Origin: Mytilus trossulus
Taxonomy: Eukaryota
NCBI RefSeq assembly: GCF_036588685.1
Contig: NC_086379.1
Coordinates: 14,384,001-14,448,000, forward strand
Length of the DNA: 64,000 nucleotides
Reading direction: 5' to 3'
Positions 687 through 57,901 of the stretch are shown piece by piece. The notes beneath the pieces are model-generated. The model was not told where the DNA came from and did not search any database. It worked only from the letters and a program-made list of their open reading frames with translations. A program made the translations under genes and the position numbers. Every line of letters starts with the position of its first letter. Position 1 is the first letter of the stretch.

Positions 687-809
687 GAGGGGCTGATCCA
701 GCTGGGGTTCCTAACTCAAAAGAAAGGGGCGGGGGTTCAAATAAGTCAAATACATTGATCTTTTAAATATGGTCCAACCCGCAGAACCCCTACCCCGGAT
801 CGGCCACTG
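687..809. mobile_element. Degenerate GC-rich MITE
   Basis: aggggctgatccag ... ccggatcggccactg form imperfect inverted termini. Confidence 0.45.
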
Positions 810-2398: not shown

Positions 2399-3809
2399 AT
2401 TGAATTTGTTTTGTATAAAAAATGACGACCTTTCTGTTATGTTTCTGTCCTTGGAAGATGCACTATATTTTGCATGGTCAAGTTTTAGTAATGACCACAT
2501 CATCTATCAATATTGTACACTAACGTACAAATAATCTGCTATTAACAATGTCTATTCTATTTTTAACCGAAATGATTTGTGGTATAGACTTGAAAGAAAG
2601 ACACATTATGCCAACATGTACAAATGCAAAACAAATATTTACGCTAGAACTTTCAGAAATGACGTCCTTTAATGAAGTAAAATAGAAATGCTATTTAGAT
2701 ATGATAAGATGTGATATGATTGCCGACGCAACACTTTTACATATAAGTCACAATTTGTTAAAGTAAACCATAAAAGGTATAATTATGGTCTTCTACACGA
2801 AGCTATAGCTCACACTGAACAGCAAGGTTTAAAGGGTCAAACAAATGAATAGTGTTAAACCATTCAATATATATGTATAAATGACAAATAGATTTTCTTT
2901 CAACTTAATATGCGTAATGATTTGATTGTGTAATAGTAATTATGATAGCCAAAGTGCGCACATATTTGTTATTAAAGTACGAAAATATTCATATGTATGA
3001 TAAAAACAAATTAATAATTGTACCAATAATCATACATAATGGGATGTATGGATAAATAGTAAAATCACAAAAATACTGAACTTAGAGGAAAATCAATTCA
3101 AAAAGTCCATATTCACATGGCATTATCAAATAACAAAACGCATCAAAAAAGAATGGACAAGAACTGTCATATTCCTGACTTGATACAGTAGTTATCAAAG
3201 GTACCAGGATTATAATTGAGTACGCCAGACGCGCGTACAGGCATTTTCAAATGTGGAAAATTGTGGATTAAACTTGGTTTTATAGCGTCAACTCTCTCAC
3301 TTTGATGACAGTCTCATCAAATTCCGTTATATTTACAATGATGCGTTAACTAAACAAATAAATAAAACAGTCAAATAAATATACAGGAATTAATCAATAT
3401 AATATATGTTTTATTTTACTTTCTCATTTTATTCACTACCAGTAAGTTAGAGTGTTATTCTACGTTGACCCTGTGGGTTTATGTAACCGAGAATTATAAG
3501 TTAGAAAAGATTTATAGAATTGTTACCAAAAACCAAAATATTGAAACGAAACATAAGACTGAGGAACAAGCTTCTAATTCAAACCCAAAGAATACGCTTA
3601 TATACTTAAGCTTTGTTTTAGCTCTTTTTTTATAAAACTAAATTTCACTTGTTTAATCAATTGTAAGTACTTATAAAAGATTCGTACAGCTAACATGAAA
3701 ACATTTTGAGATGTATATGTTTGCTTCAACGATTTGAAAAACAAAAACATATGGAACAATGAAAGTTGACAACATAATATCATAGCCATATACTTTCCAT
3801 ACTTTATAC

Positions 3810-3911
3810 CTCATTCTTTTGATTTGGATCTAAATTTGATGTTTCGAGTAACAGTTTGACTGTTTCGAGTTCTCCAGTTCTAGCAGCTATGTGTAAAACA
3901 GTGTTTCCATT
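3810..3911 (-). CDS. Ankyrin repeat exon NGNTVLHIAARTGELETVKLLLETSNLDPNQKNE
   Basis: 102 nt, tttcag/GTATAA; last exon confidently found. Confidence 0.88.
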
Positions 3912-6900
3912 CTGAAAAAATAACAGTTGAAATATTTACAGTTCTTCCAAATATTCTGCTAAAAACAAAAAAAAACAGATTGAATACATACAATTAATAG
4001 TACACACCGTTTTTAATATGTAAGTTACGTGTAAACGTTAATTTTGTCAACAACTTGTTGATCGAGTCTGAATAAATTTGATTTCGCCTTACTCAAAATA
4101 ATTGAATACTTATTTATTTATTTATTTTTTTTAATATAAAACATATTTTATTAACAATCGCCTGTTACATCAACCCTCAGTTGCCCAGGGGAGCATTTGT
4201 CGGGGAAATACCAAATGAGAAAAAAAACTCCCACGATAAATTATTAACATCAACCTTTAAACATATTATCTATCCTTGTACAAATGTACATGTACCTGCA
4301 ATCATTATCGATCCATATATCTTTACCTCTCACCATATATAATTTTTTCAGTAAAGTATGTATCTTTATTTATTTCTCACAAAAACTACCTGTATTTATT
4401 AAGCAGTTTTTAATGTTACGGTACATCAAGTCTTTGGTTATGTTAATTTCAATTACATTTAAATTCTGGTCATGTTATCACGTGCGATTTGTTGAAGGGA
4501 TGTGTTACAGTAGTTCATTCATAAAAAAATGGATTATTTAATGATTTTTGATTTCCAAAAAGGTTTTATTTCAAAGATATGGTGAGTAAATATTTGTTTA
4601 TAAAATGAACCTGTTGATACAACATGTCTTGTTACAATTAGATGATATACCTGAATTACATACACAATAGAAATGACATGTAGGGAGTTGAGAGCAGTGT
4701 AAATATTATTATTCAATCAGTATCAAAGAGATCATAGCACTGACCTGACCACACAAAATGTATATGTATATACAAAAAATGTTACACATAAAAGAAAAGG
4801 CTTCGTTTTTCGTATTCGGTTAAAAAATATTTGAGCAAAAATTGCATTTCTTGTTCTATGTAGTAACTTCCATTGAAGTTGTTTAGTTTTCCTGTTAGCT
4901 AAATTCTTATTCAAGGTTTCCCAAATGTATTCCCAGGGTAGCTTATTCCCAAAATGTAAATTCCACTTAAACTGGCTTTTTGGAGCTGTTTTATTCTCAT
5001 AGAAGTTTCTAATATTTTTTTGGCACCAACGACAACTCCATTTTTTATAAATTGACAAGAATTTATTATTTTTATAGGTCTATCAGAGTGACTTTGCATG
5101 CTAGAGTCTGTTTTTAAAACGTCAATTTGTTGAGGTGTTAACGAAGATTTAATGCGGCTATATTGTGCTATCCAATTTCTTTTATCCATCAGACGGTTAA
5201 AAATATCAAAAGAAGTTTTAAAGGATTTATTGTTTAAGTCACATATATCTTTCTTTTTTTTTATTCCACTGGAGGCAAAATTTGCATAATATAATGCATG
5301 TCCCTTGAACTTAAATTTAAAATTGCCGAATATATATTTTCTTCTAAAAGGTCCTCTTTTGTGACCGATGTTTGGATTTTCTGTAAGTCAGACCAGGAAA
5401 TTAAAAGTTCTTTATAATATTTGGACATTTGTTTTTGCCTAAAACATGAAGTGTCCGAACAAGAACACATAAAAAAATCTGTATCATATTTTTCGTCTAG
5501 TGACGTCAACCAGTATTTTCCTATTGCATTCCATTTTTGTGTTATTGAGTTGACAATACTGTACATACTTTTCACCTGTTTTGATTTAATAAAGTCCCTT
5601 AAGTTTATCATTCCTATCCCCCCTTTTTCTTTCGGTAAACAGCACACTGTTCTAGCGATTTGGTTTGTTTTCCAATCCCATATAAAGGACCATATAATAT
5701 TATTTATTTGTTTTTCGAATATGTCCGGGATACCTCTAATTTCAATTTCGTATCCAATGACAGACAGTACAAAGGATTTAATAATTAAGACTTTTCCCGT
5801 AAAAGTGAGATCTCTTGATTTCCAAACTTCCATACAGCTTTTTATCTTATTTATTTTTTCTAACCAAATTTGATCTAAGTCCACCCCGTATCCATGTTGT
5901 ACCCCTAATGCTTTAACAGGACGCTTAGACCATTTAATTTTGTTAAATTTTGGTTTTTTATTTCACCACTTGCCTAAATACATGCCAACAGTCTTATCCA
6001 TATTCATTTTAGCCCCGAAGCGTTTTCGTACAGTTTTAAAGTTTTAAATGTTTCTTCGATAGACTCCTCACTTTTATTAAAGAGTTGAGTATCGTCAGCA
6101 AACATATTTAGCTTAGTTTCAATATAGTCCCCAGTTCTAGTAGGAAGTTTTATTCCTTCTATATTAGGATTGTTTCTAATTGAAGCTGCAAGTGGTTCTG
6201 CTTGCAGGATATATAACACCGGGGCTATTGGGCATCATTGACGAATTGAACGGGTTATCTTATATACTTATTTTTCTTCAAAGAACAGCCTTTGCCCCAA
6301 AGCAACTGAATTACACACTGTGGATGGCTTTGAATTCCATGTGAATTTTGCACGTCAATTTTCTTTGAGATTTTAAGATTTATTTTGGGGTTTTGTTTGT
6401 TGCGAGTGGGTACTTAAATGTCAAGTACGTCTAAGAATTGTTTAAGTTGACTATGTAACGATTGACAACCCTCTTGTGTGGTACAATCTATACCTTGTAT
6501 ATTTTTTTAGGGTCTATTGTTGTTCTTTCTAATAACAGTCTAACTGTTTTTAATTTTTCTACTTCTGCAGCTGTATCAAATGGAGTGTCCCCATCCTAAA
6601 ACAGAAATGCAACGATGTTCAGAGAACTAAAAGAAAAGGAAGAAACATTAACTAATCTTATCTGAATAATGTTATTTTGAAACAAGTCATTTGTATTGAT
6701 TTTAATTTTGAGCTTAAGTGAACAAACATGGTCATGGTGACGTGTTTTCATTTCTCATCTATATTGACAAAGATTGCCAGTTCCCCAACAAAAGGTTGGT
6801 GGTTCTCTTAGTTTACTTCAGCTCTCTCCACCAATTGATACTGTCACTAAACTTGATATTAAACATATTATTCGTCAATAAACCAATGAACCAACAAAGC

Positions 6901-9900
6901 CTTAGTGACACTCATATATTGAAGATAGGTATCATTACAGACAAACCTCTAGATAGAGTTATGAGTGAAGGCAATTTAAATTGGATACGATGAAACTTAA
7001 GTAGTCAAACGTATTTAGAAGAAACAAACGAATTGCCTTATCTACATCATATGATACAAGGTGGAAAGTTATTTCATTGCGAATCATATCACAATCCTAA
7101 TTTCATATAGATCAACATATAAACGGTCTATGGTAAGAAGAAAAAAAGAAACAATCCAGTAATAGGAAAAAAGATTTGAAAAAGTCTATAAATTTGTTCT
7201 AAATCACATCATCATAATGAATAGGTTCTCATGCATGTACATCATTCGTACACCGTTCGGGAAGCGTGCGTACAGCGTACGGGCATCGGCCGTGCATGGT
7301 TCGGGCATCGTTCGTATTGTTAACTTTTACGTTACACGGACTGTACTATGCAATTCAATATATGACATTATACATTTTAATTGAACTATGGTCATTGTTA
7401 CGTTGAATTAATTTGTCAATTAATATTATTAATAATATTGCTTTTGAAAAAGAAACACTAACATTTCCAAAATTATCCACAAAATACTAATTAAAATTCA
7501 TTGATTTATAGAGAGAACATGAAAATTTACGCATTTTTCCAGAAGAATTCTACAATGTACTTGAAAGACTCCCTAGCAAGTTAATTAGTTAAAATGCATA
7601 ATGAAGTATTCCAATAAATAAAACAAAGTGAGTTACCTTAATTTGTGCAATGAACCAAAGGTTGGATAGCTTTATAAATATTTACTTTTTATGACTTTCT
7701 GAAAATAATGTTTAGTGGATTATCAGCCACAAACTGTTTCTTAATAAAATGTATGTACTGATGATTTTTTAAATCTTTAACACTTGATTAATCAATAAAA
7801 AATCATTCTCTTTCTCGTTATTTTTCGCATTTATAAGTTTCAGGGTGTTGAAATTGGTTCATAGAAAAATACTGCCTCAAACATTTGAAAAATGGTTCCC
7901 GGTACATTACAGTATAATATTGTTTAAGCAAACAATGTTTCAATCGAATCTGATGAACACCCTTTTTGAGACTGGTTGTTAATAATCTAGATTGTATCTT
8001 CCTGTTTTTGACAAGTGTATGAAGGAACTATGAACCAAAAGAAGAAAACAAAAAAAGGCGATGACAAAACGCATTACTCACCAATTTTATATTTGAAATG
8101 AGGAATATATAACACAAATAGTAATGGATGTAACATTGCCATTAAGAAAGAGTTTTATTAGATTTGAAATTTCAAATATTAATTACTAATAATTCAACAG
8201 ATAAATTTAGGTATAGGTCCTTGTACTAATGAAACTGCAAAGATCAATAATATTAATTAAAACCAATTTTTATGTGTTCAGCTTTTGCAGATTAACACAT
8301 CTTATATTCTTAAAAAAATTAAAACATATGGAAACGGTGAATGTGTTAACGACTCAAAACCCCAACCAAAAGAGCAGAATACAGCACAAGGCCATCAGCA
8401 CAGCCAGAACATCCGGTACGAACAAGCAGTTACACAAATGTGTAGTAGTGTATAAAAGGTGGACATCACAACAATAAACCACGATCCATATAATTGAACG
8501 GAAATTTGAAAAATGATATACAAGACTAGCAATGGTCAGAGGTTCCTGATTTCGGACAGCCACAAACATGCCTCAGGCTTAAACATGTTTTATGAGATCC
8601 CAACGTTCTCCCTTTATCTTCTATAAGTTGAACCTATATGTTCGGTTTTGATCAGACTCGTGAATCATAATAAACAGCTTATCAACAAGTATAAAAGTGC
8701 CCAAATTTTGACTATTTTATTTATATGTGTCTGTTTAGTAAACGCATCATTGTAAATATAACGGATTTGGATGAGACTGTTATCAAAGGCAGAGGTTCAG
8801 CGCTATAACATCAGGTTTAATCCACCATTTTCTGCATTTGAAAATGCCTGTATAAGTCAGGAATATGACAGTTCTTGTCCATTCGTTTTTGATGTGTTTT
8901 GTTATGTGGTTATGGACTTTTCAAATTTATTTTCCTTTATGTTCAACATTTCTGTAATTTCACCTTATACATGACCTCATGAAATTCGTTGATATTGGCA
9001 TTTTTGTTTCTTTGGGGGGTTTTGTTGTTGTTGTTGTTTTTGTTCATATAATTCCCCTCCCCTCTGATATCTAGTATTTTACTAAGATATGTGTTTATAA
9101 ACAACATTGTTTAGGCATTCATTTCAATTGACAATTTAACAAAGTCAGTCAATACCTTATTTACGCTTTTTGGATCGATCATTGTTCTTTCTAATAACAA
9201 CTGAAGAATGGTTGGGTCTCCACCTCTACAAGCTGAGTGTAAGAGAGTGTCACCGTTCTGAAATAAAGAGGTTGCAATCTTTACAGTAGCATACGTTGGT
9301 ATAAAAAAAAAAGTAGAAATGATCTGAAAACATAAAACAGCATCCGGCAAAAATTTGAAAAGTGAAAAATTAAAGATCGTTTTTGTAATAACATTTCTCT
9401 TAAACCGTAAAAATTAAAATCATGAAAAACTCCGAGGAAAATTCAAAACGGAATTCCCAAATCAAATTGTAAAATAAAAAAAGCTCCGTCACATTTAACG
9501 AGTACATAACAATTGTATAAGAACACAACTTGTGTACAAGAAAAATGTTCAAATGCAAGTTATTCAGCCTGAGACAAAGTTTCATCTTAGCTAATTCAGC
9601 TACCTTCACTAACAAAAACTGGACATTTAGCTAAAAGGCATTATCACTGAGCATGGCTATAATCAACATGAACTAAATTAACAAATATTAGATTGGTAGG
9701 TTGTATGATACTCATAGTACGGGCAGACATTACGAGTGTTGTCTCAATAATAATACAATATACATAAAAAATGACGCAATGACCGTTATCGACAGCATTT
9801 TTGTAAAAAGACACAACATGTTAACATCTTCTGAAAAATTGTCTCATTGGAAATCAAATGATTTTATTTTTTTCATAAATATGCATACCTGAAGGTACCT

Positions 9901-27900: not shown

Positions 27901-30900
27901 CATCAAGGTTTCCCATTTTCAGACTTTATCACATATTAGGTAGTTGTATATACATACGTTCATGAATGATAAGTACACACTATACTTATATATAACAATA
28001 AATATATCAAACACAATTTATAGTTGCCGATCGCCCACAAGACTAGAAGGACACCGGATTTTATTATAATCTATCATAACAAACATAATATTTATGCAAA
28101 TAATTTCTATATACATATATATAAACAATGCTTTCGATATGAAATGAAAACATTGACTCCGTCGAACCCGCCGGCCAGGAAAAAACAACAACCAAGTTAC
28201 CTTAGTCGATATGGAAACCTGTGTCCAAACCCTAATGCTCGGAAGATCGTCTCGAGAGTTGTACTTGGACAATACTGAAAGTTAGGTTATAGATATAGGA
28301 AGATGTGGTGTGAGTGCTAATGAGACAACTCTCCATCCACATAACAATTTAAAAATTAAACCATTATAGGTTAAAGTACGGCCTTCAACACGGAGCCTTG
28401 GCTCACAACGAACAACAAGCTATAAGGGGCCCCAAAATAACTAGTGTAAAACCATTCAAACGGGAAAACCAACGGTCTAATCTATATAAACAAAACGAGA
28501 AACGAGAAACACGTATATATTACATAAACAAACGACAACTACTGTACATCAGATTCCTGACTTAGGACAGGTGCAAACATTTGCAGCGGGATTAAACGTT
28601 TTAATGGATCCAAACCTTCTCCCTTTTTCTGAAACAATAGCATAACATCACAACATAGAAAAACATACGATAAAATATCAATTGGCAGACTTAACTCAAT
28701 CAAAAAACGTAATATGCTTACATAAACAAATACCATCAAAATGTGTAATAGCAAACATAAATACCAATATATAGTACACAAACAAGAAAAAATCAAACAT
28801 TAATGAACCAACATAAAATCTGAACTTGACCAGTTCGAAGTTGGCGAGAGAATGGTCTGATAGGAAAATAAACCCGCCAAAATGACCATTCACGTGATAC
28901 TACAATTAATATCACGTGTCCATACATATATTGAAAGAACCTAATATCACGTGTCCATACATATATTGAAAGAACCGTTAGTACAATAATTTTTACTCTA
29001 TACTTCGAAACGCGGAAAATTATAAATCCTTGTCTTAATTTATCTGTACAATTGGAATGCAATATAAGCCTAAACTAAGAAAACGAATCTTAATTGATTG
29101 AGGGTCTTTGATTCTTATAAAATCAAAATTATTTGGGTTTAAGTATGCCTTGGCATTTCGAATATTTTGATTACGTAACGCATTTTGCATTCTGAAGATT
29201 TAAGTATTTATAAGAGATGTGTATAGAATTTATAATCAACATTATGTTGACATTGATTTTGATAAAAGATGCAACAAAGTTTAACAAGTATATACAAAAT
29301 GTCAATTCGTACCTTATTTTCCACATTTGGATCTATATCTGCTCTTTCTAATAACAATTGAACTATGTCAAGATTTCCACAACTAGAAGCTGCGTGTAAG
29401 GGAGTATTACCATTAAACTAAAAAAAAAAGCATCATATGAAAGCTATCAAAAACAATTCATACACATGTATAGCAGTTCACAATTGCATTTGCCATTATT
29501 TCGGGACGTTAATGAATTTCAAACTTTTTTGATTATCGCAATTTTGTTAAAACTGTTGATGTGTTTTATGTAAATTATTTGTGTACATAGTACATTTCTA
29601 TTGTGATGTGTAATCGTATCCAGTTTGCATTGTCAAAGGTTGCCTTTTTTCTCAAAAGCTCAGTTGTTTTGGGTGTTTATTTTTCCATCCACCACCAACA
29701 AAACCTGATCGCATTAGTATGACCATTAATGTCCGTTGCGTCAACCTCAACATACAAATACATAACAATATCATGGTTAGTTGTAGTATACAAATAGTTT
29801 GATTACGGGCAGATTTTAAAAAAAGAGGTTACAATAAATGCAATCGAAATAGGAAAAGACATAATTAAATTTGTCAAAATTATATAACACAAACAGACAG
29901 GCTGGTTACATCTACGTCATTTGTGACGTAGTTGAAAGTTGTTTCGTAAGTCCCAGCTCATGCCAGTGCAGTGCATGCATATAGTGTTTATGCCTGTTCT
30001 ATTTTACTTTTATTTTTTTGTGTGACTATATGATTTGTACAATCTTATTATTCATTTGTGCTATGTATTAAGTGTACTCTGCTTTTCACTTAAAAATGTC
30101 ATTAATGGTATCTGCATTGTGTGTTGTTATTAAGTCGATTTGAAAAGCTGTGTTTATGTTGTTTATTGAATATCGACTCTAAATAAAACTATGAATCTTG
30201 AATCTTGAATCAAGATCTTGAATCGTAAGCAATCATATCACATTTCCTTGTTTTAATATGTAGCAGGATATGTGTAATTTAAACATAATGTTTCTTTCTT
30301 TTTATTGGATATCTCAAACGATTTAGCAATTATACTACTTGACTAATATATTCATACCGTATCCTGTTTTGGGGGTTGTGTATTCTTATAAAATATTATC
30401 AGTTTTATAGAAATATTTTACAAAGTTTTACTACCCGGTAAAGAACGTCATCCCATACCCCATTGCCTTTATTCGGATCTATATCTGCTCTGTTTAATAA
30501 CAATTTATCTATGTCAAGATGTCCACAACTAGTAGCTGCGTGTAAGGGAGTATCATCATACTGAAATAAAAAGTTTACAATGTTCGTATTATCATACAGA
30601 CGTATAAAACAAACTATGTCATACAAATGAAAAAAATACAAAAAAAGATTGGCCAACAATTCGAGATAGATGAATTTCAAAACTGTTTTTCTTAATCGTG
30701 TTTTTCTTAAAACTGTTAATAAATAGTGTATCCGAATCACATTTAATTTGACATTAAGTTGATTGATCTGTTGGTGTACTCCATTGTCACCCAAAAACAC
30801 AAACTGAAAAAAGCTTTAAACTCCAATAAATCAAATACACCAACAATATCATGGTAAGTTGTCTTGGCTCTTAGTATAACAGTTGGTTTCATTACTGGCA

Positions 30901-33900
30901 GATTTCAGAAAAGAGGTCTCAGTCCAGGCAATCGAAATAAAAGAGAGACGAAAGATACCAGAGGGACAGTCAAACTCAGAGATTGGATATAAACTGACAA
31001 AGCCATGGCTAAAAAACCAACAGACACATGAAAGAACACAATACACACATCTTGGGTGAATTTAGATGCTTCGGAAGGGTATGATGAGTCTGCTCCACGT
31101 GTTACATCCGTCGTGTTACTCATGTTATTACAAACCCGGTAAAAATTCTCTTTCGGTAGGTCAAATTCTTGAAGAGGGAATGAGATTGTATTTACGACGT
31201 AAGGAAAATATCAGATGTCCTCTGTGAAACGGTTATTCTATAACGATGGCGACACTTAAATTTACGAATGGATGATTGCATTTTTTAACTCTTGGTTTAT
31301 AGCTTTCTTGTGTGCCAGAAATAGTGATCGGGCGTACAAGCCTGGGGAAGATCGTATCAACTGGGAGACATATATTCCGTTTGCAATCGCTGATGTAATA
31401 TTGCTGCATAAAAATGGACAAGTATTAATTGGGAAGCTGAAATCATCTCATTTGTCGTTTCAACCGACCCTCATTGTCAATTTCTAGAAGTATGTGAAGA
31501 TATGAGGCTGACTGAGCTGTATCCTGGTATCCTGTTTTTTTTTCCTTATTTAATGAGATAGATGCGTTCAACAAAGTTACCAAATTCTGAATTATTTAGT
31601 GAGACAACTTATCTATATATTCGAAAGTAAAGTTCATGCATATTGCTAACATATTATCTAAAGAAATGCAAACACCTATTGGATTTTTAAAATGGAAATC
31701 ACTAGAAGACACCAATCTAGCATATGAAACATTAAAATTTATTTTGACATTTTTAGATGATAATAGATATAAAATATTTAAATGAAAAAATACTTCATCA
31801 TATACTACCCTGTAATCAATTATTAAAACAATGGCGTTGAGTACAAACAGATACCTGCTTACACTGTTAACAAATAGAGAATTATGAACACTTCTTCCAC
31901 AAATGTTCATATTTTGAATTACTATGGCGAGTACAACAAATTCTTAAGAAATTAAATATTGGAAGATATGTTATTAATCTAAAACATAGCTTTGGAATAT
32001 AACATGCATGATAAAGAGCACTATGAACTAAATTTACTTTTAACTATTATCAGTTACACAATATATCAAGTATACTACTATATGTCTGACAAAAAAATAA
32101 GTTATACAACCATTCAAAATATTAAAACAAGATATCAGAACTTTTATTGAAATAAGAAACGTTTTAGAATATACAATTGGCAGACCATTATAGCAATTTA
32201 ATAAACTGAATGTCTGACTAGGACCCTATGAATGATGGCTGGAAAATAATAATATCTCAACCAAAAACAGAGAATATACTGTAATTTTCTTTAAACATTG
32301 TATTACCACCTGTTTATGTATATACATGTAAATATTTAAAATATTGACATTATACTATAATTTTCTTCAAACACTGTAGGTATAAGTACCAGTTTATGTT
32401 TACATATAAATAATAGTGTTTATCAATTGTGAATTGCGATTTGACTGTATTTATATACAACAGTCAACAGTTGTTTTATATATGTTATGTTTTCATGATT
32501 ATTATTTGAACTATATATTATTCGTCTATGTTTGTTGTTGTCCACTAAATAAATGTTTTTTTTACTAGCTTAACGTTATTCAAGATATAAGAATCTAGTA
32601 TGACATTAGAACACTCAGAAAACGAAAATTACCTTCAACTGAATAAGTTGATAAAATAGCATCCGATTTTACTAATTCGATATTTTGTAAAACACATATT
32701 TGCATTTCAAACGAATATTCACAACAGAAAAAGATAACGGCATATCAATAATCCTTTCAAAACAAAAATTTTGGAAAAATTTCGTTGAATAATGCACTAA
32801 TGTTTATTCCATATAATTACTGCACATGAGGACGGGATAAGGTACCGGTATTTGATGGTTCTATTAACAAATGTGAGTATGTTAATAAAACTTAGGTTAA
32901 AAAAGAAAGAAAGAAATACTTATCTTTCTTCCTTAGAAGTTCCTGTATGAAGTCAGTCTCATAATAATAAAGAAACAAGTAGGCAAGAAGAGATTGGTTT
33001 GTTGAAAAATACGTCCAAATATGTTGTCAAGTAAGAAATCAAGCATCTTGATAATGTAAGTATCAGAATTGTTCTTTGTTTATTTGAATCAGACTGATTC
33101 TTTACAAAGTAGGATTTATCCCTTCCTACAACAAGATATTTGATTACTTTTCTAGAAAACCAAACAAAGCCAACTCTTTCAAAATTCTTAGATTGTACGT
33201 ACTCTTAAAGATTTTGGAATTTATTGATATCCCCATCGAATTCACGCCATCTCTAGAAAAGGAAGTTTCACAATAACTTTGAAGCCCGGCTTTGAATGCT
33301 GATAGAATATTTGTTAATGAATTTTGATTTGTATCAACGACCTCAAAGCCTTACTGTATTCGGAAAGAATATATTTGCACGTTTAGCCAATTCCCTGGCA
33401 TAATCCTCGATTGAATTCATCAGTATTTTGAAGATGTATTTCAAATTGATAGATTAAGGCTCACGATACTAAGGACCGTTGGATAAAACATTGTGCAGGG
33501 AGCTGTTAATAACAATGTTGATGTCAACGGTGGCCAGCCGGATTTTATATGAATTGCGAACTAGCATAGGTGCAATAGGAGGTTGAGATTTGTCGTCAAT
33601 ATTGAATTTCTGAAAAATGTGTTTGTAATTGGAAATATTAGTTGCAGTTGGTTTGGTATAGGTATAAGAAATGATTGGTACAGACTGATCTTTACAATAA
33701 GGAGGTATTTTCGACTAAACCTATTTATGATGACAGTTATTGCCTAAGTTATCGTCATCGAGACCTTTGTTGGGAAAGGAAAGTTTATGAATTGTTCATG
33801 AATTTGTTCATAAGGATTAAGATAATAACTTCTGTACTTAAAACATGTTCATGGTGATATTTTCAATTGATAAAGATTGCTAGTTTTCCAGAAAGTCGGT

Positions 33901-36900
33901 TGTTCTATCTATTTCCTCCAGGTTCATCCACCAACAAAAACTAACCACCATGGTATTTGCAATCTCATTGAACAAATATTTTTACTCCAACAAACAAATA
34001 CACTAACAATATCGTGGAAAGTTGTATCATGCTTATAGTATAAAAGTTAGTAGCATTACGGACAGACTTTAAGAAAGAGATCTCAGGCAAGGCATAAATT
34101 AAAAACTGATACGAAAAGCTGTCAAAAGTAGATAGATAGATAGATGCTGTATTCCCTGTAAATTAATACAAGTTATAACTTTACAGAGTACCTAAGGATG
34201 TATGGATTTGTTTCCAGATATATCAGGATAGTTTAATATCATTGTTCTTGCTAGCAAATAACCAGCAATATAATTGTAAGTTATATAACACTTATAGTAT
34301 AACAGTTGGTTTCATTACGGGCAGATTTTTAGCTAGCAAATAACCAGCAATATAATTGTAGGTTGTATAGCACTCATAGAATAACAATTTTTTTTAATTT
34401 TGCCTACGTTCTGAAATTTGATTTGGGGTGATGGCTGTAGCTAAACATTATAGTATAGTATCCTCTGAACTATATATTTTATGTTAACAACGTAACTAGG
34501 AATGGTCACGGTGCCTTTATATTAGTCAAACAGAGCAGCAGGCATAATTCATTATAAGAATTGAAACCATATATTAACACCACATATCTTTTTTCTCTTA
34601 ACAGACTTTACCATGTATTGTGTAGACATTCAAATTCAAGTTCTTTTAGTAAAATCGATTCGTCACAACAATACACTCTATTAAATGAAAAGACCATATC
34701 ACCGTCGGATACAATATGTTACATTAAATTACTCAGAATGAAATACACACAACTATCTGTATACCTTATCACCAACAAATACAGAAGCTACCTTTTTTCT
34801 GGACCTTTAACCAAATGGTTGAAACCTAATCAATACGCATTAAAACATCGGTTTGAAGAATAAGGTTGTTATGTACCTGAATATATGTATAGAAAAAGAG
34901 TATATGTGGTAACTTGAACCCAACCTAAGTGTGGTATTCAATATGTGGGACAGACGGGACGAGAGTATTTCAGAAGAAATCAAGAACATCTGTACCGCTT
35001 TCGTAGACCCAAAAAATTCAAAAGTTTAATATATCAGCATTTAGATAAGCATAATCATAATCTGAAATATATAAAATTCCAACCGCTCGAAACCGTTCAA
35101 AAACAACCAGGAGAATCACACAAGCAATTTGAAAAATCACGCGAAGTTCGCGAATTGTTTTGGATAAAAAGACTTCAAACAGCTTATCCTCTCGGTCTAA
35201 ATGATAAAATATTAGGGCAGGGGAACATATCTAAAACTCATATCGATGTCATTAATATTGTTGATAAACGACTTAGAAATAATAGATCTCATGGTAAACG
35301 CAAGAACCGCAATCAACGTATTAAACATCGTAAAAATTATACACTTGCTGATCTGTTATCTATAATAAAGAATAATGGCAGACATCAAGTATTATGCAAA
35401 CTGGGTCAGATACCTATAAGTAAATTATATGCTATTTTTCTTGAGTGTGATAAAATTTCTTTTTTTAGCCCATTTTAAGAATACACCCGTATTATTACAG
35501 CCTTTTGTCATCACAGGCTTTTTCCTATTATTGATAAACCTGAAAATCGTAAACGACATTTTCTCAAATTAAAATATATAAATAGAGGTATTGATTTTAT
35601 TAATTTGTCTAGCATATTCAATGACTCTTCTGTCTATAGCTTAATACCTCCATATTTTGATAATATAGAACAACCCATTATTTCGTATTCTTATAAAAAA
35701 CCGAGCAGAAATTTGATTTTCAATTATACGTCAATTACAACAGACGTCAATATAGAAAATAATGTTCCTTCCACTTGAGATTGCGAAACATCTAGTTTTA
35801 AATATGTTCCCTATGGTCATGTTATCACAGGAGACCTCAACATAGTCGATGACCGTGAAGTCATAACTTTTCTAAAGAAATGACCGAAATACCGTCCTCC
35901 ATCTACAATAGATTGGAAACAGTGTCGTCAGGTCATTAAAGACGCTCTGTCTGCCTATTGTAAAAATTGGTGCAAACGTGAAAAATCCGATAAAAAATCT
36001 TTAGACAGTTATTTGAATAAAATTATGAATACTGTTGATATTCGAATATCTCATTTAGAAAACAATTCTGAAATAAATAATAGGAACCATGATATACCCA
36101 TTTCTAGAATAAAAAACAAACTCAAGGTACTCGCAGAGCGGTTTGTGTTCGTACCGGCAGACAAGGCATCAAATAATGTAGTGGTGGTGTGACGCATATA
36201 CTACACGAAAGTTCTTCAAAACGAAATTATCAATTCCTCTACATTCAGGTCAGTGCGCACCATAGAGAGTCAAATCGTTAACAAGCATACCACTGCAACT
36301 GCCCAGCTTAAAGCATCTTCCGAACATTTGAAAGTCCCTACCATGTACTGGTTACCGAAATTACACAAAAAACCATTTAAATTCCGTTTCATCTCCGCTT
36401 CGAGTAAGTGTTCTACTACTAATCTATCAGTGTTTCTAACCACCTCCCTTACTACTATCAAAGAACTGGTTATTAACTTTTGTAATAAAGCTTATGAAAA
36501 TAATGGTATTAATTATTTTTGGAGTGTTAAAAATTCTTTAGAGGTTTTAGATAAAATACATGCTTTCAATGGTCCTTACAATTCTGTTGACAGTTATGAT
36601 TTTTCTACTCTGTACACTACACTTCCACACAATCTTATAAAGAAAAAGTTTTTGTATTTGATAAAATGGTCTTTCGAAAATTCTCATTGTGATTTTATTT
36701 GCTGTAACTCGTTTAAGGCCTTTTTCTGTAACGAAAAAGGAAAGTATGCTAGATACACTTACTGGAAATGTGAGGATATGATTAAAGCTTTAAACTTTCT
36801 GCTTGATAACATTTATGTACGTTTCGGCGATAAAGTGTATCGTCAGGTAGTAGGTATTCCTATGGGCACCAACTGTGCCCCTTTAATAGCAGATTTATTT

Positions 36901-39900
36901 CTATATTGCTATGAATCTCAGTTTATGACCAAACTCAGTAAAGACCCATCATTGTTACATTTGGTTGATACATTCAAAAATACCTACCGTTATCTGGATG
37001 ATATTTTTTCGTTGAATAATCCAGAGTTCTCTAAATATACTTCAGAAATTTACCCAAACGAACTTACTTTAACTAAATCTAACATAAACAGCAGCAGTTG
37101 TCCTTTTCTAGATTTAGACATTTCAATTTCAAACGGGAAACTTCACACTAAAATTTACGACAAAAGAGACGATTTTTCATTTCCTATTGTTAATTTTCCT
37201 TTTTTAGACGGCGATGTGCCTTTGGCTCCATCATACGGTGTTTATATATCGCAACTCGTTCGGTTTGCCCGTGTGTGTTCTGATGTCATAGATTTTAACG
37301 AACGTAATCAATGCATCACTGGTAAATTGTTGTGTCAGGGATTTCGATACCATAAATTACTTAAAACTTTTACTAAATTCTTTCATAGATACAAAGATTT
37401 GATTAGTAAATTTGGCTATACCTGTAGAAAGCTTATTAAAAATGGTATTTCTCATCCTAAATTTTATGGTAATATTGTACTTAAAGCGAGGAAATCACTA
37501 TGTGATCCTTGTAAACTCATCGAACCTTTAAACAAACTTATAAGTAAGGGTTATCGTACCAATATTGTAATTAGATCTCTGAATATAGTTCACATTGGCA
37601 CTAATATTGATTTTGTCATTAGCAAATTAAAACATAACTAAATTTCATTATCTTTTGAGGCGAGATGTATAGGGGACACAGCCACGTTAACTTTTATTTC
37701 TATAGAAGTAGCTCTTCACTATACTACTACCTATCGATACATTTATTTTTGGCATTGCACAAGTCATGTCTTCTTTGACTATTAATGACGTTAAAATACT
37801 AAATCCCTGTGATGTGTTTTAGTCGATTTTAGTCTCTGATGCATGATTTTTACTATTAATTGGTTTTGGCTTTTAACTAGCTGTCAGTAACTGCGAGTAC
37901 TCTCAAATCGTATTTTCTTGTTAATTCGACCTGTTGATACTGTTTATAATGCTTTTTTGTCATTTTTTATTTATATGTATCTTGCTTGTATACCAGCTTT
38001 GATTATTTGTAATATCTTCAATTTTTCACTTATTCTTACAACATTTGTATAAACTTCAAGATTATAAAAAAACGGTTTTTTTCTAAAGTGAACATTGATT
38101 GGTTAAATATTTCTCAGTGTGTTTGAATTTGTTTGTAAGCCTTTTGGTCATGAATGTTTGTCTCTAATATTTAATTAACTGTGCATTTGTATTCAGATAT
38201 CGCAGATCAAATTTATTCGTTCATTGTGTAATCATACGTTTTTTGATTGAGTTAAGTCTGCCAATTGATATTTTATCGTATGTTTTTATATGTTGTGATG
38301 TTATGCTAATGTTTCAGAAAAAGGGAGAAGGTTTGGGCCCATTAAAACGTTTAATCCCGCTGCAAATGTTTGCACCTGTCCTAAGTCAGGAATCTGATGT
38401 ACAGTAGTTGTCGTTTGTTTATGTAATATATACGTGTTTCTCGTTTCTCGTTTTGTTTATATAGATCAGACCGTTGGTTTTCCCGTTTGAATGGTTTTAC
38501 ACTAGTAATTTTGGGGCCTTTATAGCTTGTTGTTCGGTGTGAGCCAAGGCTCCGTGTTGAAGGCCGTACTTTAACCTATAATGGTTTAATTTTTTAATTG
38601 TTATTTGGATGGAGAGTTGTCTCATTGGCACTCACACCACATCTTCCTATATCTATAGAAACAATATCCAACTTAAAGGTAAATACAAAAAACAGAAAGG
38701 TCATACAAATTCAAACGCAATCAACCAACGGAACAAGTTAAAAATAAAATATTCTATTCCTGACTTGGTACAGGCATTTTCTAAAGAAAATGATAGGTTA
38801 ACTTAAGTTTTACGGCTGGCAAAACATCTTTATTGTATGTTGTTAACAGTTTCATTAAATTGACAAATTGATTGAGTATTCCAGACATTTATATTTTGTT
38901 AATGTGCAAATTGTTGTGACCCAGCATGACTGAGTAAACTTACATCACTGACATATAAAACTGACTGAAAATTCAAACAAACATAGAAATATATCTAACA
39001 ACGATGTGAACAAAAAGATTGCTGTAGTTGATAGTAAAATTGACTAAGAAAAATACAAAAGCATTATGGTTATTGAGGAGAACCCTGTAAAATCCAAATC
39101 CTGCATTTCAGATTTGATTTTGAGAGGTAAAGAGTTAGCTAGGTCAAAATATTGATTTTTGGAAAAATAGTGAAAAATAAAATCAATTGTCTTGCTATTC
39201 TGAATTTTAGTAAAATCTTGCTCTAAACCATTCCCTCTCGCAAGCGGCTATTGCTAGTTATGGCTATTAGTACTTTAAATAACCATTTGATACCAAACAA
39301 ATTTTTTTTTTTAAACAACGAACATTATAGCGATATGCTTCTGTTGTATTAATAAGTCAAATTTTGGGAAGAATGAAGAATAATACTATTTTATCAATTG
39401 CTTGTAATTGTGTTATTGTTCAATACAATTTAGCTGGTTCCCTAAGTTGTTTGTGTTAAAATTCTCACCCAGTCGCTATAGTTTATATCTGCGCCTTTGG
39501 AAAGCCAATCTTTAACCTTTTGTAAATCCCCGTTTTCAGCTGCTTTACAGAGAACCTGGAGGAAAGCATATATTCCATTGAACAAGTATTCTCTATTAGG
39601 AATATTTGTTTGTACAATAGTATCAATTATTATAACTCAGAATGCTTTTTCTATATAAAAAGTAATGAAATAGTTGTGCTATATCATTCCACAGAACCAT
39701 TTGCCAGTCAATAGTTTCAAAGCCTATTGCCCCGGGAAATAGTTTCATAATCATCTTTCCCGTACTTTTTCATGCTTAAATTTCATTGAACGATAATGAT
39801 GTCATTGACTACTCTGCTTGGCTACGTATGCTTTGCAACGTCAAACTCACTCTTATATTGTAAACGTTGGAATCTGTTTGTGTTGATTGTAATTTAACTT

Positions 39901-40925
39901 TCAAGAAGCAATTATAAGAAAGAAAAAAAATCTTCACGGGAATTTTATAAAGATCTAGAATATAGTACCTTATTCATAATATTGGTTCGCTCTCCGTATA
40001 TTAAAAGTAAATTTGCGTTTGGTGTACTTTAGCTTGAATTAAATATAAGAACGGAAAGCTTAACACTTGTTCAATATAATAAAACACCTAATGACTGGTT
40101 GTGCGGGTAATATCAAGTTTGTTGTCCTTTTTGCATACCAACTATTGCTCTTGGCTTTGCCCGGAGCAATAGTTGGTACCTCAGGGACAACAAACTGTCT
40201 ATTATCCTAACAACCCGACATAGGAGCGTAAAACAACTGAATGCAATGTGTCTTCAATACAGTGAGAAAATTCCCCACCCGGAGGCGTGGTTCTTCTGAC
40301 CCCTAAACAAAAATGTGTACTAGTTCAGTGATAATAGACGTCATACTAAACTTCGAAATAAATAAAAGAAACTATAAAAATTATAATCATACAAGACTAA
40401 CAATGGTCAGAGCCTCCTGACTTGGGACAGGCGCAACAATGCGTTGGGGTTAAACATGTTTTTGATATCGCAACTCTCCTATACCACAAGCAAATGTAAA
40501 AAAACAACCGCGCACAGCAATACGCACAGTTAAGATCAGTTTAAAAGAAGACCAAGTTCGATGTCAAAATACTTGAATAACGTTTGTTTTCATAAACAGC
40601 TGATTTTAGGTGTCATTTAATACAAAGTCAGATTAGACCGATCTATCGTATTAAGAAAAATAATGCGTATTGTAGGATTTGTGTTATCACATAAATAACA
40701 TATAAATTTATGACAATCTTTAAGCTAGAAAAGAGATAATTTTAACAAGTGTAAAAACTCCATTTAATTGAATTAAAACTGATGTCACGTCAAAACCTGA
40801 ATTCGGAATACGATATATCTGAATTTTATTTCAAATTAGAAATGATCACGCTCTAAAACAAATACGAATTAGATTGGTGTCATTTTTGTAAAACTTACAT
40901 CATGTCCCTGCTGCCAACTTTCCAT
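3810..40925 (-). CDS. Multi-exon ankyrin-repeat protein gene (ATG exon, N-cap exon, 11 single-repeat exons); 3' end unresolved
   Basis: 13 coding exons each bounded by AG/GT on the minus strand with phase-0 junctions. They splice into MESWQQGHD-VLCKAAENGDLQKVKDWLSKGADINYSDW followed by repeats of the G-x-T/N-x-LH-x-A...G...LL...DP-x-x-x-N ankyrin pattern. Confidence 0.88.
4123..6263 (-). mobile_element. 5'-truncated, decayed L1/Tx1-type LINE (RT C-terminal half and A-rich tail)
   Basis: ITRSIRQ*CPIAP, MFADDTQLF, YENASGLK, WKSRDLTFTGKVLIIKS, LPKEKGGIGMINL, LQWKLLHR across several frames; A-rich tail near 4110-4150. Confidence 0.88.
6494..6595 (-). CDS. Divergent ankyrin repeat exon DGDTPFDTAAEVEKLKTVRLLLERTTIDPKKIYK
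   Basis: 102 nt, ttttag/GTATAG; TPFD replaces TPLH. Confidence 0.8.
9156..9257 (-). CDS. Ankyrin repeat exon NGDTLLHSACRGGDPTILQLLLERTMIDPKSVNK
   Basis: 102 nt, tttcag/GTATTG; lies inside ORF 9111..9350. Confidence 0.9.
11661..13490 (+). mobile_element. Head-to-tail dimer of a Helentron-associated (HINE/DINE-like) non-autonomous element
   Basis: Units start at 11661 and 12533 (872-bp period). 5' palindrome CAATTGTTC-aga-GAACAATTG plus GGTCTTTCCAC; internal TGACCTTGACCT subrepeats; 3' hairpin GGTCTTTCCAC-n6-GTGGAAAGACC present twice. Confidence 0.7.
14735..14960 (-). repeat. Third copy of the tRNA-derived unit
   Basis: Reverse complement of the 62.9-63.15 kb unit, including B box GGTTCGAATTCC and the (TA)n end. 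Confidence 0.7.
17144..17245 (-). CDS. Ankyrin repeat exon DNDTLLHSAVRDGHLHILQWLLERTKIDPNIVNK
   Basis: 102 nt, ttgcag/GTATTG; lies inside ORF 17108..17476. Confidence 0.9.
18143..18244 (-). CDS. Ankyrin repeat exon DGDNLLHSAVRGGLLNILQWLLERTKIDPKEENK
   Basis: 102 nt, ttccag/GTATTG. Confidence 0.9.
19158..19259 (-). CDS. Ankyrin repeat exon DGDTLLHLAVRDGRIIILQWLLQRTKIDPYSVNK
   Basis: 102 nt, ttacag/GTATTG. Confidence 0.9.
20258..20359 (-). CDS. Ankyrin repeat exon DGDNILHSAVRGDHLIILQWLLERTKIDPKSLNK
   Basis: 102 nt, ttccag/GTATTG. Confidence 0.9.
21267..21368 (-). CDS. Ankyrin repeat exon DGDNILHSAVRGGHLNILQWLLERTKIDPKSVNK
   Basis: 102 nt, ttccag/GTATTG; same peptide as the 22246 exon with two synonymous differences. 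Confidence 0.9.
22246..22347 (-). CDS. Ankyrin repeat exon DGDNILHSAVRGGHLNILQWLLERTKIDPKSVNK
   Basis: 102 nt, ttccag/GTATTG. Confidence 0.9.
22918..23198 (-). pseudogene. Destroyed ankyrin exon (donor deleted, split by a hammerhead-family repeat)
   Basis: Acceptor and DGDT codons at 23187-23198; the remainder of the exon at about 22920-23001; insert of about 185 bp between them. The caatacctta donor segment found in sister units is missing. Confidence 0.85.
23002..23186 (-). mobile_element. Hammerhead-family repeat fragment inserted in an ankyrin exon
   Basis: Motif at 23047-23089 reads CGUCA-CUGAUGU-GUCU...AGAC-GAAA-CGCGCG-UC-UGGCG, with one core substitution. Confidence 0.85.
24736..27031. 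mobile_element. Non-autonomous TIR DNA transposon with TTAA TSD (Kolobok-like termini)
   Basis: TTAA|GGGAATACGATACAGTAG ... CTACTGTATCGTATGCCC|TTAA; TIRs match at 17 of 18 positions. Confidence 0.8.
27130..27579 (+). repeat. Dispersed repeat, probably the 3' end of another retroelement family (also 3058-3372 minus and about 8708-8960 plus)
   Basis: Three aligned copies share aagtcaggaatatgacagtt...gtccattc, and two share the end ttcagtatttttgtgattttact. The AAGTCAGGAAT motif also occurs in the Naiad 3' UTR. Confidence 0.65.
28289..28711 (-). mobile_element. 3'-terminal fragment of the Naiad-type element
   Basis: Near-identical reverse complement of about 38235-38657. Confidence 0.9.
29313..29417 (-). 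CDS. Ankyrin repeat exon FNGNTPLHAASSCGNLDIVQLLLERADIDPNVENK
   Basis: 105 nt, poly-T-ag acceptor and GTACGA donor, TPLH motif; one codon longer than its paralogues. Confidence 0.82.
30459..30560 (-). CDS. Ankyrin repeat exon YDDTPLHAATSCGHLDIDKLLLNRADIDPNKGNG
   Basis: 102 nt, tttcag/GTATGG, TPLH motif. Confidence 0.9.
30940..31290 (-). repeat. Dispersed repeat (related piece at about 46763-46930)
   Basis: Shared cagagggacagt.aaactca...gccatg.ctaaaaaa block. Confidence 0.5.
34900..37641 (+). pseudogene. EN-RT polyprotein frame, predicted selenoprotein (3 Sec TGA codons); this copy inactivated by 2 nonsense changes
   Basis: 913 codons with no frameshift. TGA at 34915, 35776 and 36190 (expected Cys positions); TAA at 35476; TGA at 35881 (expected Gly of KGPKYR). 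Confidence 0.8.
37777..37834 (+). promoter_or_regulatory. Eukaryotic SECIS element (type II)
   Basis: Helix I GACTA/TAGTC; core ATGAC (37785-37789) and CGAT (37824-37827); 10-bp helix II GTTAAAATAC/GTGTTTTAGT; apical AA plus ATC/GAT mini-stem. Starts 136 nt after the ORF stop. Confidence 0.85.
39469..39555 (-). CDS. Ankyrin N-capping exon VLCKAAENGDLQKVKDWLSKGADINYSDW
   Basis: 87 nt, acceptor tcctccag, donor GTGAGA. The L-x-x-AA-x-x-G-DL-x-x-V-x-x-x-L-x-x-GADIN pattern is typical of a first ankyrin repeat. Confidence 0.88.
40899..40925 (-). CDS. Ankyrin gene start-codon exon, coding part MESWQQGHD (whole exon 40899-40932)
   Basis: Acceptor ttttacag, then ATAGACG-ATG, donor GTAAGT. An in-frame TAG two codons upstream supports this ATG as the start. 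Phase 0 joins the N-cap exon. Confidence 0.72.
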
Positions 40926-41394
40926 CGTCTATCTGTAAAATAAACATACACATTAATTATGTGTGCTAAATCGTTTCAGAAAACTGTTTTGATGGCAAAC
41001 ATAAAAACATTTTTTATTTGTCAATCAAGATACATTGAGTAGCAAACCAATTACAATTTAATCAAAGTATACAAATAATTGAAGAATAAAATCATTTTAA
41101 AACACTCTATAACATTTATAGGTATTAATTCATTGAACAATGCCAGGTTTTTCCTTATTTTATTTGATATTGTATTCTGAATCTATGATTAAGCAAAAAT
41201 TCTGTTGTTGAATTAAAATTTTCAAATAATGTTTAGTGTTACTCAATCAGTTGTCGCTTCATTTGTTAAACTCTTCAGTGGATGTTATTTTTTCTGATAG
41301 TCTGACCCTAAATAAAGACGTATTTAGTATAACTTAAAGGGTATATCGCAGGTCACTGCTCGGTTAGTCAATTTTCTATGTGTCTATAGAGAAT

Positions 41395-52202: not shown

Positions 52203-52277
52203 CTCCCCACCATGACATTTCTATAAAATTGTCATCACACAAAAAACTAATAAAATATCAATTAATTATTGTAAATT

Positions 52278-57879: not shown

Positions 57880-57901
57880 CTTTTTTGGAGTAATCGAGAA
57901 T

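Follow-up and report, generated by a model that had tools for sequence, protein, structure and literature searches.

The 64,000-nt window analysed here (Mytilus trossulus, contig NC_086379.1, positions 14,384,001 to 14,448,000; all positions below count from its first letter) carries the 5' part of a minus-strand gene which, judging from its sequence and from predicted folds, we hold with high confidence to be a ROCO gene devoid of a kinase, composed of ankyrin repeats, Roc, COR and two predicted death domains. We consider it probable, for the explanation as a whole, that duplication, loss and recombination have reshaped its array of ankyrin exons, and that the effect is most likely to vary the binding of a cytoplasmic sensor.

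As described in the first-pass annotation of this DNA, a start exon and an N-cap exon are followed in the window by 11 intact ankyrin exons of one repeat each, all without stops and each bounded by AG and GT, and the statement that these exons are multiples of 3 nt with phase-0 ends also holds (102 nt in ten of them and 105 nt in the other). The features of the gene are as follows.

40899..40932, minus strand: first coding exon, with the ATG at 40925, 9 codons (27 coding nt) and a phase-0 GT donor at 40898
39469..39555, minus strand: N-cap ankyrin exon, 87 nt, phase 0-0, Pfam Ank_4 with E 4e-4
33882..34328, minus strand: orphan pieces of intron, akin to the introns that precede ankyrin exons 1 and 3
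30459..30560, minus strand: ankyrin exon 1, 102 nt
29313..29417, minus strand: ankyrin exon 2, 105 nt
22920..23197, minus strand: destroyed ankyrin exon, starting at about 23197, into which some 180 nt have been inserted about 12 nt from its start
22246..22347, minus strand: ankyrin exon 3, in unit 1 (young)
21267..21368, minus strand: ankyrin exon 4, in unit 2 (young), encoding the same peptide as exon 3
20258..20359, minus strand: ankyrin exon 5, in unit 3 (young)
19158..19259, minus strand: ankyrin exon 6, in unit 4 (older)
18143..18244, minus strand: ankyrin exon 7, in unit 5 (mosaic)
17144..17245, minus strand: ankyrin exon 8, in unit 6 (older)
16279..16550, minus strand: orphan piece from the upstream intron of a seventh unit, ending about 30 nt short of the acceptor
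9156..9257, minus strand: ankyrin exon 9
6494..6595, minus strand: ankyrin exon 10, of a divergent type without the TPLH histidine
3810..3911, minus strand: ankyrin exon 11
1..3809, minus strand: start of a 16-kb intron running out of the window
12 to 79 kb left of the window, minus strand: the other 15 exons (ankyrin exons 12 to 16, C-cap, micro-exon, three Roc exons, COR, linker, two death-fold exons and a second micro-exon)

The count of 11 repeats is therefore correct for the window but not for the array, which totals 16 because five more lie to the left. All 16 ankyrin exons encode one repeat with phase 0-0. A search with an ankyrin-exon profile over 264 kb around the window gave 16 matches, all on the minus strand and all within this gene, and the same region contains a single start exon and a single N-cap. 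Four window exons scanned singly against Pfam matched PF00023 with E values of 1e-11, 7.8e-9, 7.9e-6 and 0.0073, the last being that of exon 10, which is under the curated cut-off. The N-cap is 77–86% identical in DNA to those of three paralogs, while exon 2 shares 94% identity with one exon of paralog A and 83% with its neighbour. Paralogs A and B have the same start exon, including its ATG and phase-0 donor. Since an acceptor is present at 40933 and a TAG lies in frame just 5' of the ATG, a 5' untranslated exon is expected further up; comparison with the paralogs found neither this exon nor a promoter.

The extension to the left that had been proposed for finding the C-terminal domain revealed Roc-COR and two predicted death-fold domains. 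The gene continues for 79 kb beyond the window, for a total span of 120 kb, and the resulting model of 28 exons (5,289 nt, 1,762 aa) is open with its sole stop at the end, the AG/GT sites and phases being consistent throughout, both micro-exons included. Roc matches PF08477 (E 3.5e-7, 30.9 bits, cut-off 27) and COR-A matches PF16095 (E 8.4e-12, 45.6 bits, cut-off 35.3); only the 107-nt G4 exon lies between the two matches, so that COR directly follows Roc. The Roc motifs occur in order as GEQGTGKT, KST, DFGGQ, THKD and NAK (G1–G5), where we take the second, fourth and fifth to be G2, G4 and G5 by eye from the consensus, and a long insertion of 373 residues separates G2 from G3. The two tail exons have predicted folds with pLDDT of 91 and 85. 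For either exon, the top ten structure matches are death domains, among them those of RAIDD, FADD, Fas and RIPK1, with TM of 0.62–0.79 to solved death domains but E values above 0.001. Neither tail exon of this gene matches the Pfam Death family, and the exon of paralog A that matches one of them gives PF00531 with E 1.8e-4. No N-terminal kinase is present, as the model begins with 9 residues and the N-cap after an in-frame stop, and no kinase family was found in the closest relatives. A classical ankyrin of the ANK1-3 type was ruled out by the Roc-COR tail, and a DAPK1 orthologue by the lack of a kinase, the Ca/calmodulin kinase domain of DAPK1 being N-terminal.

We infer that the exons splice into one transcript; the joining of the window exons to Roc, over introns of up to 16 kb, would follow from the phases and from the predicted models of relatives. 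Among the deposited Mytilus models, P0001, P0080, P0085, P0087 and P0442 link the last ankyrin types of this gene to the C-cap, micro-exon and Roc. The deposited proteins named "COR domain-containing" or "uncharacterized" (P0001–P0088, P0239) are direct relatives with the same exon types, and COR identity is 73–92% for the nine closest. They are predicted and unnamed, mostly cut before or within the ankyrin array, and none of those found spans the exons of the window. A single deposited model, P0359, was found on this sequence; it joins exons 13–16 to another first exon and to a LINE piece as its last exon, and extends neither to Roc nor to the exons of the window. Mobile elements are abundant in the genome. 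The annotation of such genes can be corrected, since in deposited models they appear as separate "ankyrin-like" and "COR domain" pieces. A profile search of 1.84 billion representatives returned generic long-ankyrin proteins, none of the 150 listed matching a COR of this ROCO family, and homologue searches with an ankyrin region brought up many unrelated ankyrins but no series of isoforms.

The split of P0359, together with deposited relatives that mostly begin just before Roc, could also indicate a young pseudogene or a split copy, in which an ankyrin-only transcript is made or the full-length product is disabled at the first Roc exon. The acceptor of that exon is indeed weak (TCGAAG, where paralog B has TTTTAG), and 6 of the 99 COR exons scored in the family are broken. 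However, AAG is a permitted splice acceptor, the 28 exons contain no stop or frameshift and have intact micro-exons, and no second start or N-cap exon exists in the 264 kb, and we regard this possibility as unlikely.

Exons 3 to 8 are carried by six tandem units of about 1 kb. The first-pass annotation had called all six young; the six units exist, but only three of them (exons 3, 4 and 5) are young. The downstream introns of these three are 2.3–5.7% apart, as opposed to 16.5–19% for all other pairs, and units 1–3 are 94–98% alike. Unit 5 is a mosaic, its upstream intron being 3–7% from the young units and its downstream intron 18%. To speak of six young units still being born is thus too strong, and pieces of the three older ones also occur in contigs of three other samples. 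The destroyed exon and orphan introns that had been reported were both recovered. The remainder of the destroyed exon (23002-22920) is frameshifted and has lost its donor, and 686 nt of its upstream intron are in common with exon 9; no exon remnant was found with the DNA profile at either set of orphan intron pieces (16279-16550 and 33882-34328).

The similarity of units 1–3 raises the question of whether the tandem units are an artefact of assembly, which we find very improbable. The units carry private substitutions and indels, the contigs of run X1 match the unique parts of units 4–6 with zero differences and an even depth of 22–25, and pieces of units 4–6 occur in X2–X4 at 1–4% divergence. 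This comparison covered positions 9000–21050, which take in units 3–6 and a small part of unit 2; it gives no count of copies, and the thin coverage of units 2–3 in X2–X4 is uninformative. A skip joint of 1,039 nt in X2–X4 (16275–17315) was considered as a deletion allele and rejected as paralog or repeat noise because of its short sides, the unknown letters between them and the high depth in two runs.

The same type of turnover is observed elsewhere in the genome. The proposed copy-number change of one-repeat exons was borne out in this gene and in four paralogs, in which 26, 9, 19 and at least 23 exons are intact and which contain tandem arrays and broken exons of their own. They carry the same exon types in other orders, with in-frame AG and GT in 94 of 106 profile matches across five genes and in 13 of 13 in a gene on contig C13. 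Half of the ankyrin exons of this gene (8/16) have their nearest relative in another gene and not among their siblings; paralogs A and D contain runs of near-identical exons, and paralog A has an intact inverted exon. We have little doubt that exons are turned over in the germ line. The ROCO family itself is large, with at least 99 COR exons (scored out of 561 candidates), 93 of them stop-free, and on contig C8 nine of ten clusters of related ankyrin exons have a same-strand COR exon 31–113 kb downstream. Closely related arrays (N-caps 86–92% identical in DNA) are attached to Roc-COR cores only 31–32% identical: N-cap DNA and COR protein identities are 92% and 32% for paralogs B and C, 86% and 31% for this gene and C, and 83% and 75% for this gene and B, where paralog B spans 390 kb including a 297-kb gap and its array and core may be separate genes.

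The framework of the repeats is under purifying selection (omega 0.45–0.48, well under 1), while the likely binding positions at the surface are near neutral (omega about 1.0) and positive selection is weak at best. The M1a/M2a comparison was not significant for 81 exons (p 0.27 and 0.49), for 16 exons of the young clade (0.99) or for the 16 exons of this gene (0.12); M7/M8 gave p values of 0.014–0.02 and M8a/M8 of 0.03–0.08, and no positive selection was found in the young clade alone. A pathogen sensor would be expected to show diversifying selection, and its weakness or absence here counts against the sensor reading. With the same gene structure, gain and loss could be neutral, driven by look-alike introns and made harmless by phase symmetry, repeat number hardly mattering to a scaffold that is not pathogen-driven. 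Such neutrality is in agreement with the omega of the surface positions, with the shared peptide of exons 3 and 4, with the near-identical runs of paralogs A and D and with the abundance of mobile elements. It sits less well with the number of stop-free COR exons, the build of sensor, switch and death domains and the swapped cores, which together resemble immune families, and with the M7/M8 and one M8a/M8 test, which lean towards a few sites above 1; we consider it possible, though somewhat unlikely. Roc-COR and two predicted death-fold domains fit a recognition protein, and that the gene encodes a working immune or danger sensor appears to us about evenly balanced.

Diversity could also arise in the transcript. 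As all 16 exons are phase 0-0, any subset would remain in frame, and up to nine isoforms are described for brown-algal ROCOs of the same build in the available text of PMC11378527, so a Dscam-like receptor with diversity mainly from regulated combinatorial splicing can be envisaged. Skipping that is permitted is nevertheless not skipping shown; the splice sites of the 16 exons are ordinary by eye, and among the eight clusters checked there is no pair of deposited isoforms with a whole repeat more or less, seven clusters having a single member and P0239 and P0471 being 11 residues apart. Regulated combinatorial splicing is doubtful, and a receptor relying mainly on it is more doubtful still.

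Returning to a sensor remodelled in the germ line, unequal crossing-over or conversion between look-alike introns would add or remove whole repeats without a frameshift, and the phase-1 intron before the first Roc exon would allow an array to join a different core. From the known biology of ROCO proteins, a target bound in the ankyrin groove may shift the GTP/dimer cycle of Roc-COR, and from that of death domains, this shift could uncover the two predicted death domains, on which an adaptor complex driving cell death or inflammation would then assemble.

The closest parallel in design is found in the LRR-ROCO genes of brown algae, which have one-repeat exons (Zambounis et al., PMC3341825; Teng et al., PMC11378527). 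As far as the available parts of these papers describe them, both they and the mussel genes place a repeat sensor before Roc-COR with each repeat in one symmetric exon, have paralogs differing in repeat number, dead exons in introns and an intact inverted exon (in the mussel, in paralog A), show exchange within and between genes, and are proposed as immune receptors. They differ in the repeat, which is an ankyrin of 102/105 nt in phase 0 in the mussel and an LRR of 72 nt in phase 2 in the algae (PMC11378527). The mussel gene, being from an animal, also has two predicted death-fold tail domains and belongs to a family with cores swapped between distant subfamilies; positive selection, weak in the mussel, is reported as strong in the algae (P<0.001, with an omega of about 5.9 for the sites under selection), for which alternative isoforms have been observed.

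Among animal proteins, DAPK1 has a similar layout. Ankyrin repeats precede Roc in DAPK1, as in the mussel gene. According to the accessible part of PMC6337361, from which the definition of the G1–G5 motifs of ROCO GTPases is also taken, the DAPK1 group has no LRR and a death domain after Roc-COR, in common with the predicted domains found here. The mussel gene is distinguished by the absence of a kinase from its 28-exon model, two predicted death-fold domains, 16 repeats of 34–35 residues, a G2–G3 distance of about 370 residues, and membership of a large multigene family instead of a single conserved gene. ROCO expansions in Trichoplax (PMC4104024) and TIR/MyD88-ROCO genes in Aplysia (PMC9334734) likewise combine invertebrate ROCOs with repeats and death-fold or TIR adaptors, but the partners are TPR/LRR or TIR instead of ankyrin arrays, and the available text describes no exon-level turnover. 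Two further reports concern a down-regulated "Ankyrin 1" in infected gills, which is not attributable to the mussel ROCO gene (PMC7772429), and TRADD-N and death-fold proteins, as opposed to ROCOs, that have expanded in bivalves (PMC8195603). No literature on an ankyrin-ROCO family in mussels was found, most subscription papers being outside the scope of the search; supplements of the two algal papers or of mussel genome papers could list such genes.

From its predicted domains and its copied, lost and shared exons, the mussel gene is a plausible immune or cell-death sensor. Bivalves, to our knowledge, have no adaptive immunity. A bolder proposal, which we put forward tentatively and judge rather unlikely in full, is that mussels possess about 100 or more ankyrin-Roc-COR-death receptors akin to a natural DARPin library, with specificity altered by germ-line shuffling of one-repeat exons and by their omission from the transcript, and with whole arrays swapped onto other GTPase/death-domain cores at the shared phase-1 intron, as an independent animal counterpart of the brown-algal LRR-ROCO genes. 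Should the turnover be neutral, the gene would still illustrate the birth and death of exons cleanly, though with modest weight. If the explanation favoured here is true, sensor and signalling halves would be exchanged between the genes of a large and badly annotated family, and the brown-algal design of repeat-exon ROCOs would recur in an animal with another repeat. For the diversification of intracellular recognition in bivalves, the ankyrin-ROCO-death family would be a concrete and testable candidate if its sensor is rebuilt exon by exon.

The start exon, the 87-nt N-cap exon and the 11 stop-free ankyrin exons of the first-pass annotation all lie at the positions it gave. The ankyrin exons (ten of 102 nt, one of 105 nt) are flanked by AG and GT and are in phase 0 throughout; four of them, scanned singly, match PF00023 (E 1e-11 to 0.007), and the repeats of the gene measure 34-35 residues versus 33 in the family model. 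The annotation had proposed extending leftward for a C-terminal domain, and Roc, COR and two tail exons were indeed found within the 140 kb examined there.

Exons left of the window (window coordinates, hence negative)
-12272..-12373, minus, ankyrin exon 12
-25904..-26005, minus, ankyrin exon 13
-27963..-28064, minus, ankyrin exon 14
-30801..-30905, minus, ankyrin exon 15
-32926..-33030, minus, ankyrin exon 16
-39057..-39131, minus, C-cap exon
-40141..-40153, minus, 13-nt micro-exon, phase 0 to 1
-51895..-52152, minus, Roc exon 1
-66660..-67853, minus, Roc exon 2
-68804..-68910, minus, Roc exon 3
-70781..-72025, minus, COR exon
-73237..-73270, minus, 34-nt linker exon
-74819..-75090, minus, first tail exon
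-78067..-78094, minus, 28-nt micro-exon
-79051..-79358, minus, last exon, with stop

The 28 exons join to 5,289 nt (1,762 residues, 120,284 bp span) with a sole, terminal stop, and the 264 kb searched yielded no other start or N-cap exon. Roc and COR-A score above the Pfam cut-offs and motifs G1-G5 occur in the correct order, G2 and G3 being separated by 373 residues. The gene belongs to the ROCO proteins. A DAPK1 orthologue was rejected as there is no kinase, and an LRR-ROCO because the repeats are ankyrins. In the second Roc exon (L007:3340-2147, left of the window), a long insertion of low complexity lies between the G2 and G3 motifs; it varies widely in length and sequence among relatives. 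The two tail exons have no match to the Pfam Death family; their predicted folds are confident (pLDDT 91 and 85, 41 rows each), and for either exon the ten top fold matches are all death domains (TM 0.62-0.79, E 0.012-0.68). The first death-fold exon has its final stretch (about 51 nt) repeated immediately behind its donor (L008:4907-4857). In the predicted protein models of relatives (P0001, P0080, P0085, P0087 and P0442), the ankyrin types with which the array of this gene ends are followed by the C-cap, the micro-exon and Roc. The one deposited model found on the gene's own sequence, P0359, holds exons 13-16 only, begins with a different first exon and ends in a LINE fragment. At the first Roc exon the acceptor is weak, with TCGAAG in place of the TTTTAG of paralog B (on contig C8). 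The predicted gene likely yields one transcript.

Six 1-kb tandem units, carrying exons 22347 to 17245, exist as previously described, but they are of two ages rather than all young: the downstream introns of units 1-3 are 2.3-5.7% apart, and those of every other pair 16.5-19%. Unit 5 is mosaic: the intron upstream of its exon differs from those of units 1-3 by 3-7%, the downstream one by 18%, a pattern left by unequal crossing-over or conversion. The destroyed exon reported earlier was recovered at about 23197-22920, interrupted by an insertion; it has 686 nt of upstream intron in common with live exon 9257, 14 kb away. Contigs of sequencing run X1, possibly the assembled sample and so not independent, show zero differences to the unique parts of units 4-6 (depth 22-25), and pieces of these units occur, 1-4% apart, in X2-X4, from a second study with a different organism label. 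The older units are therefore not a product of misassembly, and they occur in more than one animal.

The source genome (1.30 Gb, 541 contigs) is AT-rich, and all 76 closest database protein matches are from Mytilus. The intron between the N-cap and first ankyrin exons holds a reverse-transcriptase element (34918-37638, plus; weak RVT_1 match), which resembles a Penelope-type element. A broken LINE-type element (4735-6264, minus) lies between exons 10 and 11, with a more complete copy right of the window (L015). At 51742-58537 (minus) there is a BEL/Pao-type LTR retrotransposon, a very recent insertion whose two LTRs of 461 nt are 100% identical; it has long frames at 57915-55465 and 55025-52281 (Peptidase_A17, integrase zinc finger) and local duplications at its borders (48194-49602/49984-51387 and 49594-49993/58537-58937, 98.7-99.5% identical). 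A 329-codon open frame 30 kb right of the window (L017:9825 to L018:811, plus) reads by eye like a single-exon seven-transmembrane receptor.

The design is not specific to the window. In a genome search with the COR exon, 99 of 561 candidates were scored, all with E < 1e-47 and 93 without internal stop, part of them on small contigs and possibly duplicate haplotypes. Contig C8 holds ten clusters of related ankyrin exons, nine with a same-strand COR exon 31-113 kb downstream; 1.0 Mb of it was examined, covering paralogs A, B and C from N-cap to COR and 90 kb of paralog D. Across this gene and A-D, 94 of 106 profile hits are bordered by AG and GT in frame, 93 of them in sense orientation and one inverted; the other 12 are broken or were missed by a scan of in-frame splice sites only. 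Intact ankyrin exons number 16 in this gene, 26 in A, 9 in B, 19 in C and at least 23 in D, and further, broken copies were picked up in every one by a DNA profile. Tandem runs of its own occur in each gene, with periods of 2.7 kb in A, 1 kb in B and 0.76-1.0 kb in D. The array of D (L118-L119, G000:C8:50922042-50931705) is dense with near-identical exons of two alternating types at ~0.76-kb spacing, three truncated copies among them. In the middle of B, 297 kb (L054-L084, G000:C8:52734808-53031669) lack ankyrin and COR exons, being a giant intron, an insertion or the gap between two partial genes. In one gene of the cluster on contig C13, whose COR exon contains a stop, all 13 ankyrin exons hold one repeat and are in phase 0; 12 measure 99 nt and the remaining one 93 nt. 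One-repeat exons are common to the whole family.

With each letter denoting one DNA cluster, exon order is sabbbbbbbldfddqg in this gene, anbfdajaaaaaaehaehadfdeahx in A, eaeabbbgg in B and eaajbbbbfdfdbvtmucw in C: common types in different orders. Half of this gene's exons (8/16) are nearer to another gene's exon than to any sister. The predicted M. coruscus model P0239, with an A-type core (79-94% identical), has about 25 repeats and a different set of expansions.

N-cap DNA/COR protein identity (rows with B weakened by its 297-kb gap)
B-C: 92%/32%
This gene-C: 86%/31%
This gene-B: 83%/75%
This gene-A: 77%/30%

Conversion of 5' parts among neighbouring genes would give the identical N-cap/COR pattern. 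The COR of this gene groups with C13-type cores (56-61%), while its ankyrins are of the 34-residue C8 type, unlike the 33-residue C13-type repeats. In the predicted M. galloprovincialis model P0434, the last repeat and C-cap are of type B and the Roc that follows them is of type C. Judged from these sequences, sensor arrays and Roc-COR cores appear to be exchanged between genes. This gene, paralogs A, B and C and two genes of the C13 cluster all begin their first Roc exon in phase 1, which is a natural swap point.

Selection was analysed with in-house codon models on the 81 exons that remained of 93 once identical ones were removed, with tree and relative branch lengths fixed and one alignment row carrying three wrongly added bases. 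Omega was 0.56-0.59 overall, 0.45-0.48 in framework codons and 0.97-1.01 at the six positions randomised in DARPin libraries. The site models, which presume no recombination between exons (violated here) and have little power with 34 codons, gave p 0.27 and 0.49 for M1a/M2a, 0.020 and 0.014 for M7/M8, and 0.08 and 0.03 for M8a/M8; M1a/M2a gave 0.99 for the young clade alone and 0.12 for this gene alone. For the six units pooled, pS was 0.147 and pN 0.101. The repeats are maintained as folded ankyrins, their surfaces drifting or under weak selection.

The nearest known system is the brown-algal LRR-ROCO family (PMC3341825, PMC11378527): its repeat exons carry a single repeat each and are shuffled, some are inverted or dead, positive selection is strong, and splice variants occur. 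An inverted intact exon occurs likewise in paralog A (L044, G000:C8:52571426-52571527, minus), with both splice sites and adjoining a forward copy (compare PMC3341825). ROCOs with death-fold domains in Trichoplax (PMC4104024) and ROCO-TIR fusions in Aplysia (PMC9334734) have also been described. No publication on mussel ankyrin-ROCO genes was found in the literature searched, mostly outside subscription journals.

The modular gene noticed at first pass is confirmed as an observation, and its reading as a diversifying recognition scaffold is partly supported. Symmetric exons, duplication, loss, mosaic units and common exon types are observed. One long transcript from all exons would encode a capped solenoid with as many as 16 repeats; target binding could tune the Roc-COR GTP and dimer cycle documented for other ROCOs (PMC6337361), and the tandem predicted death domains may recruit adaptors. 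Judged by its architecture and family expansion, the gene is a candidate for a role in immunity, the chances of which we consider evenly balanced.
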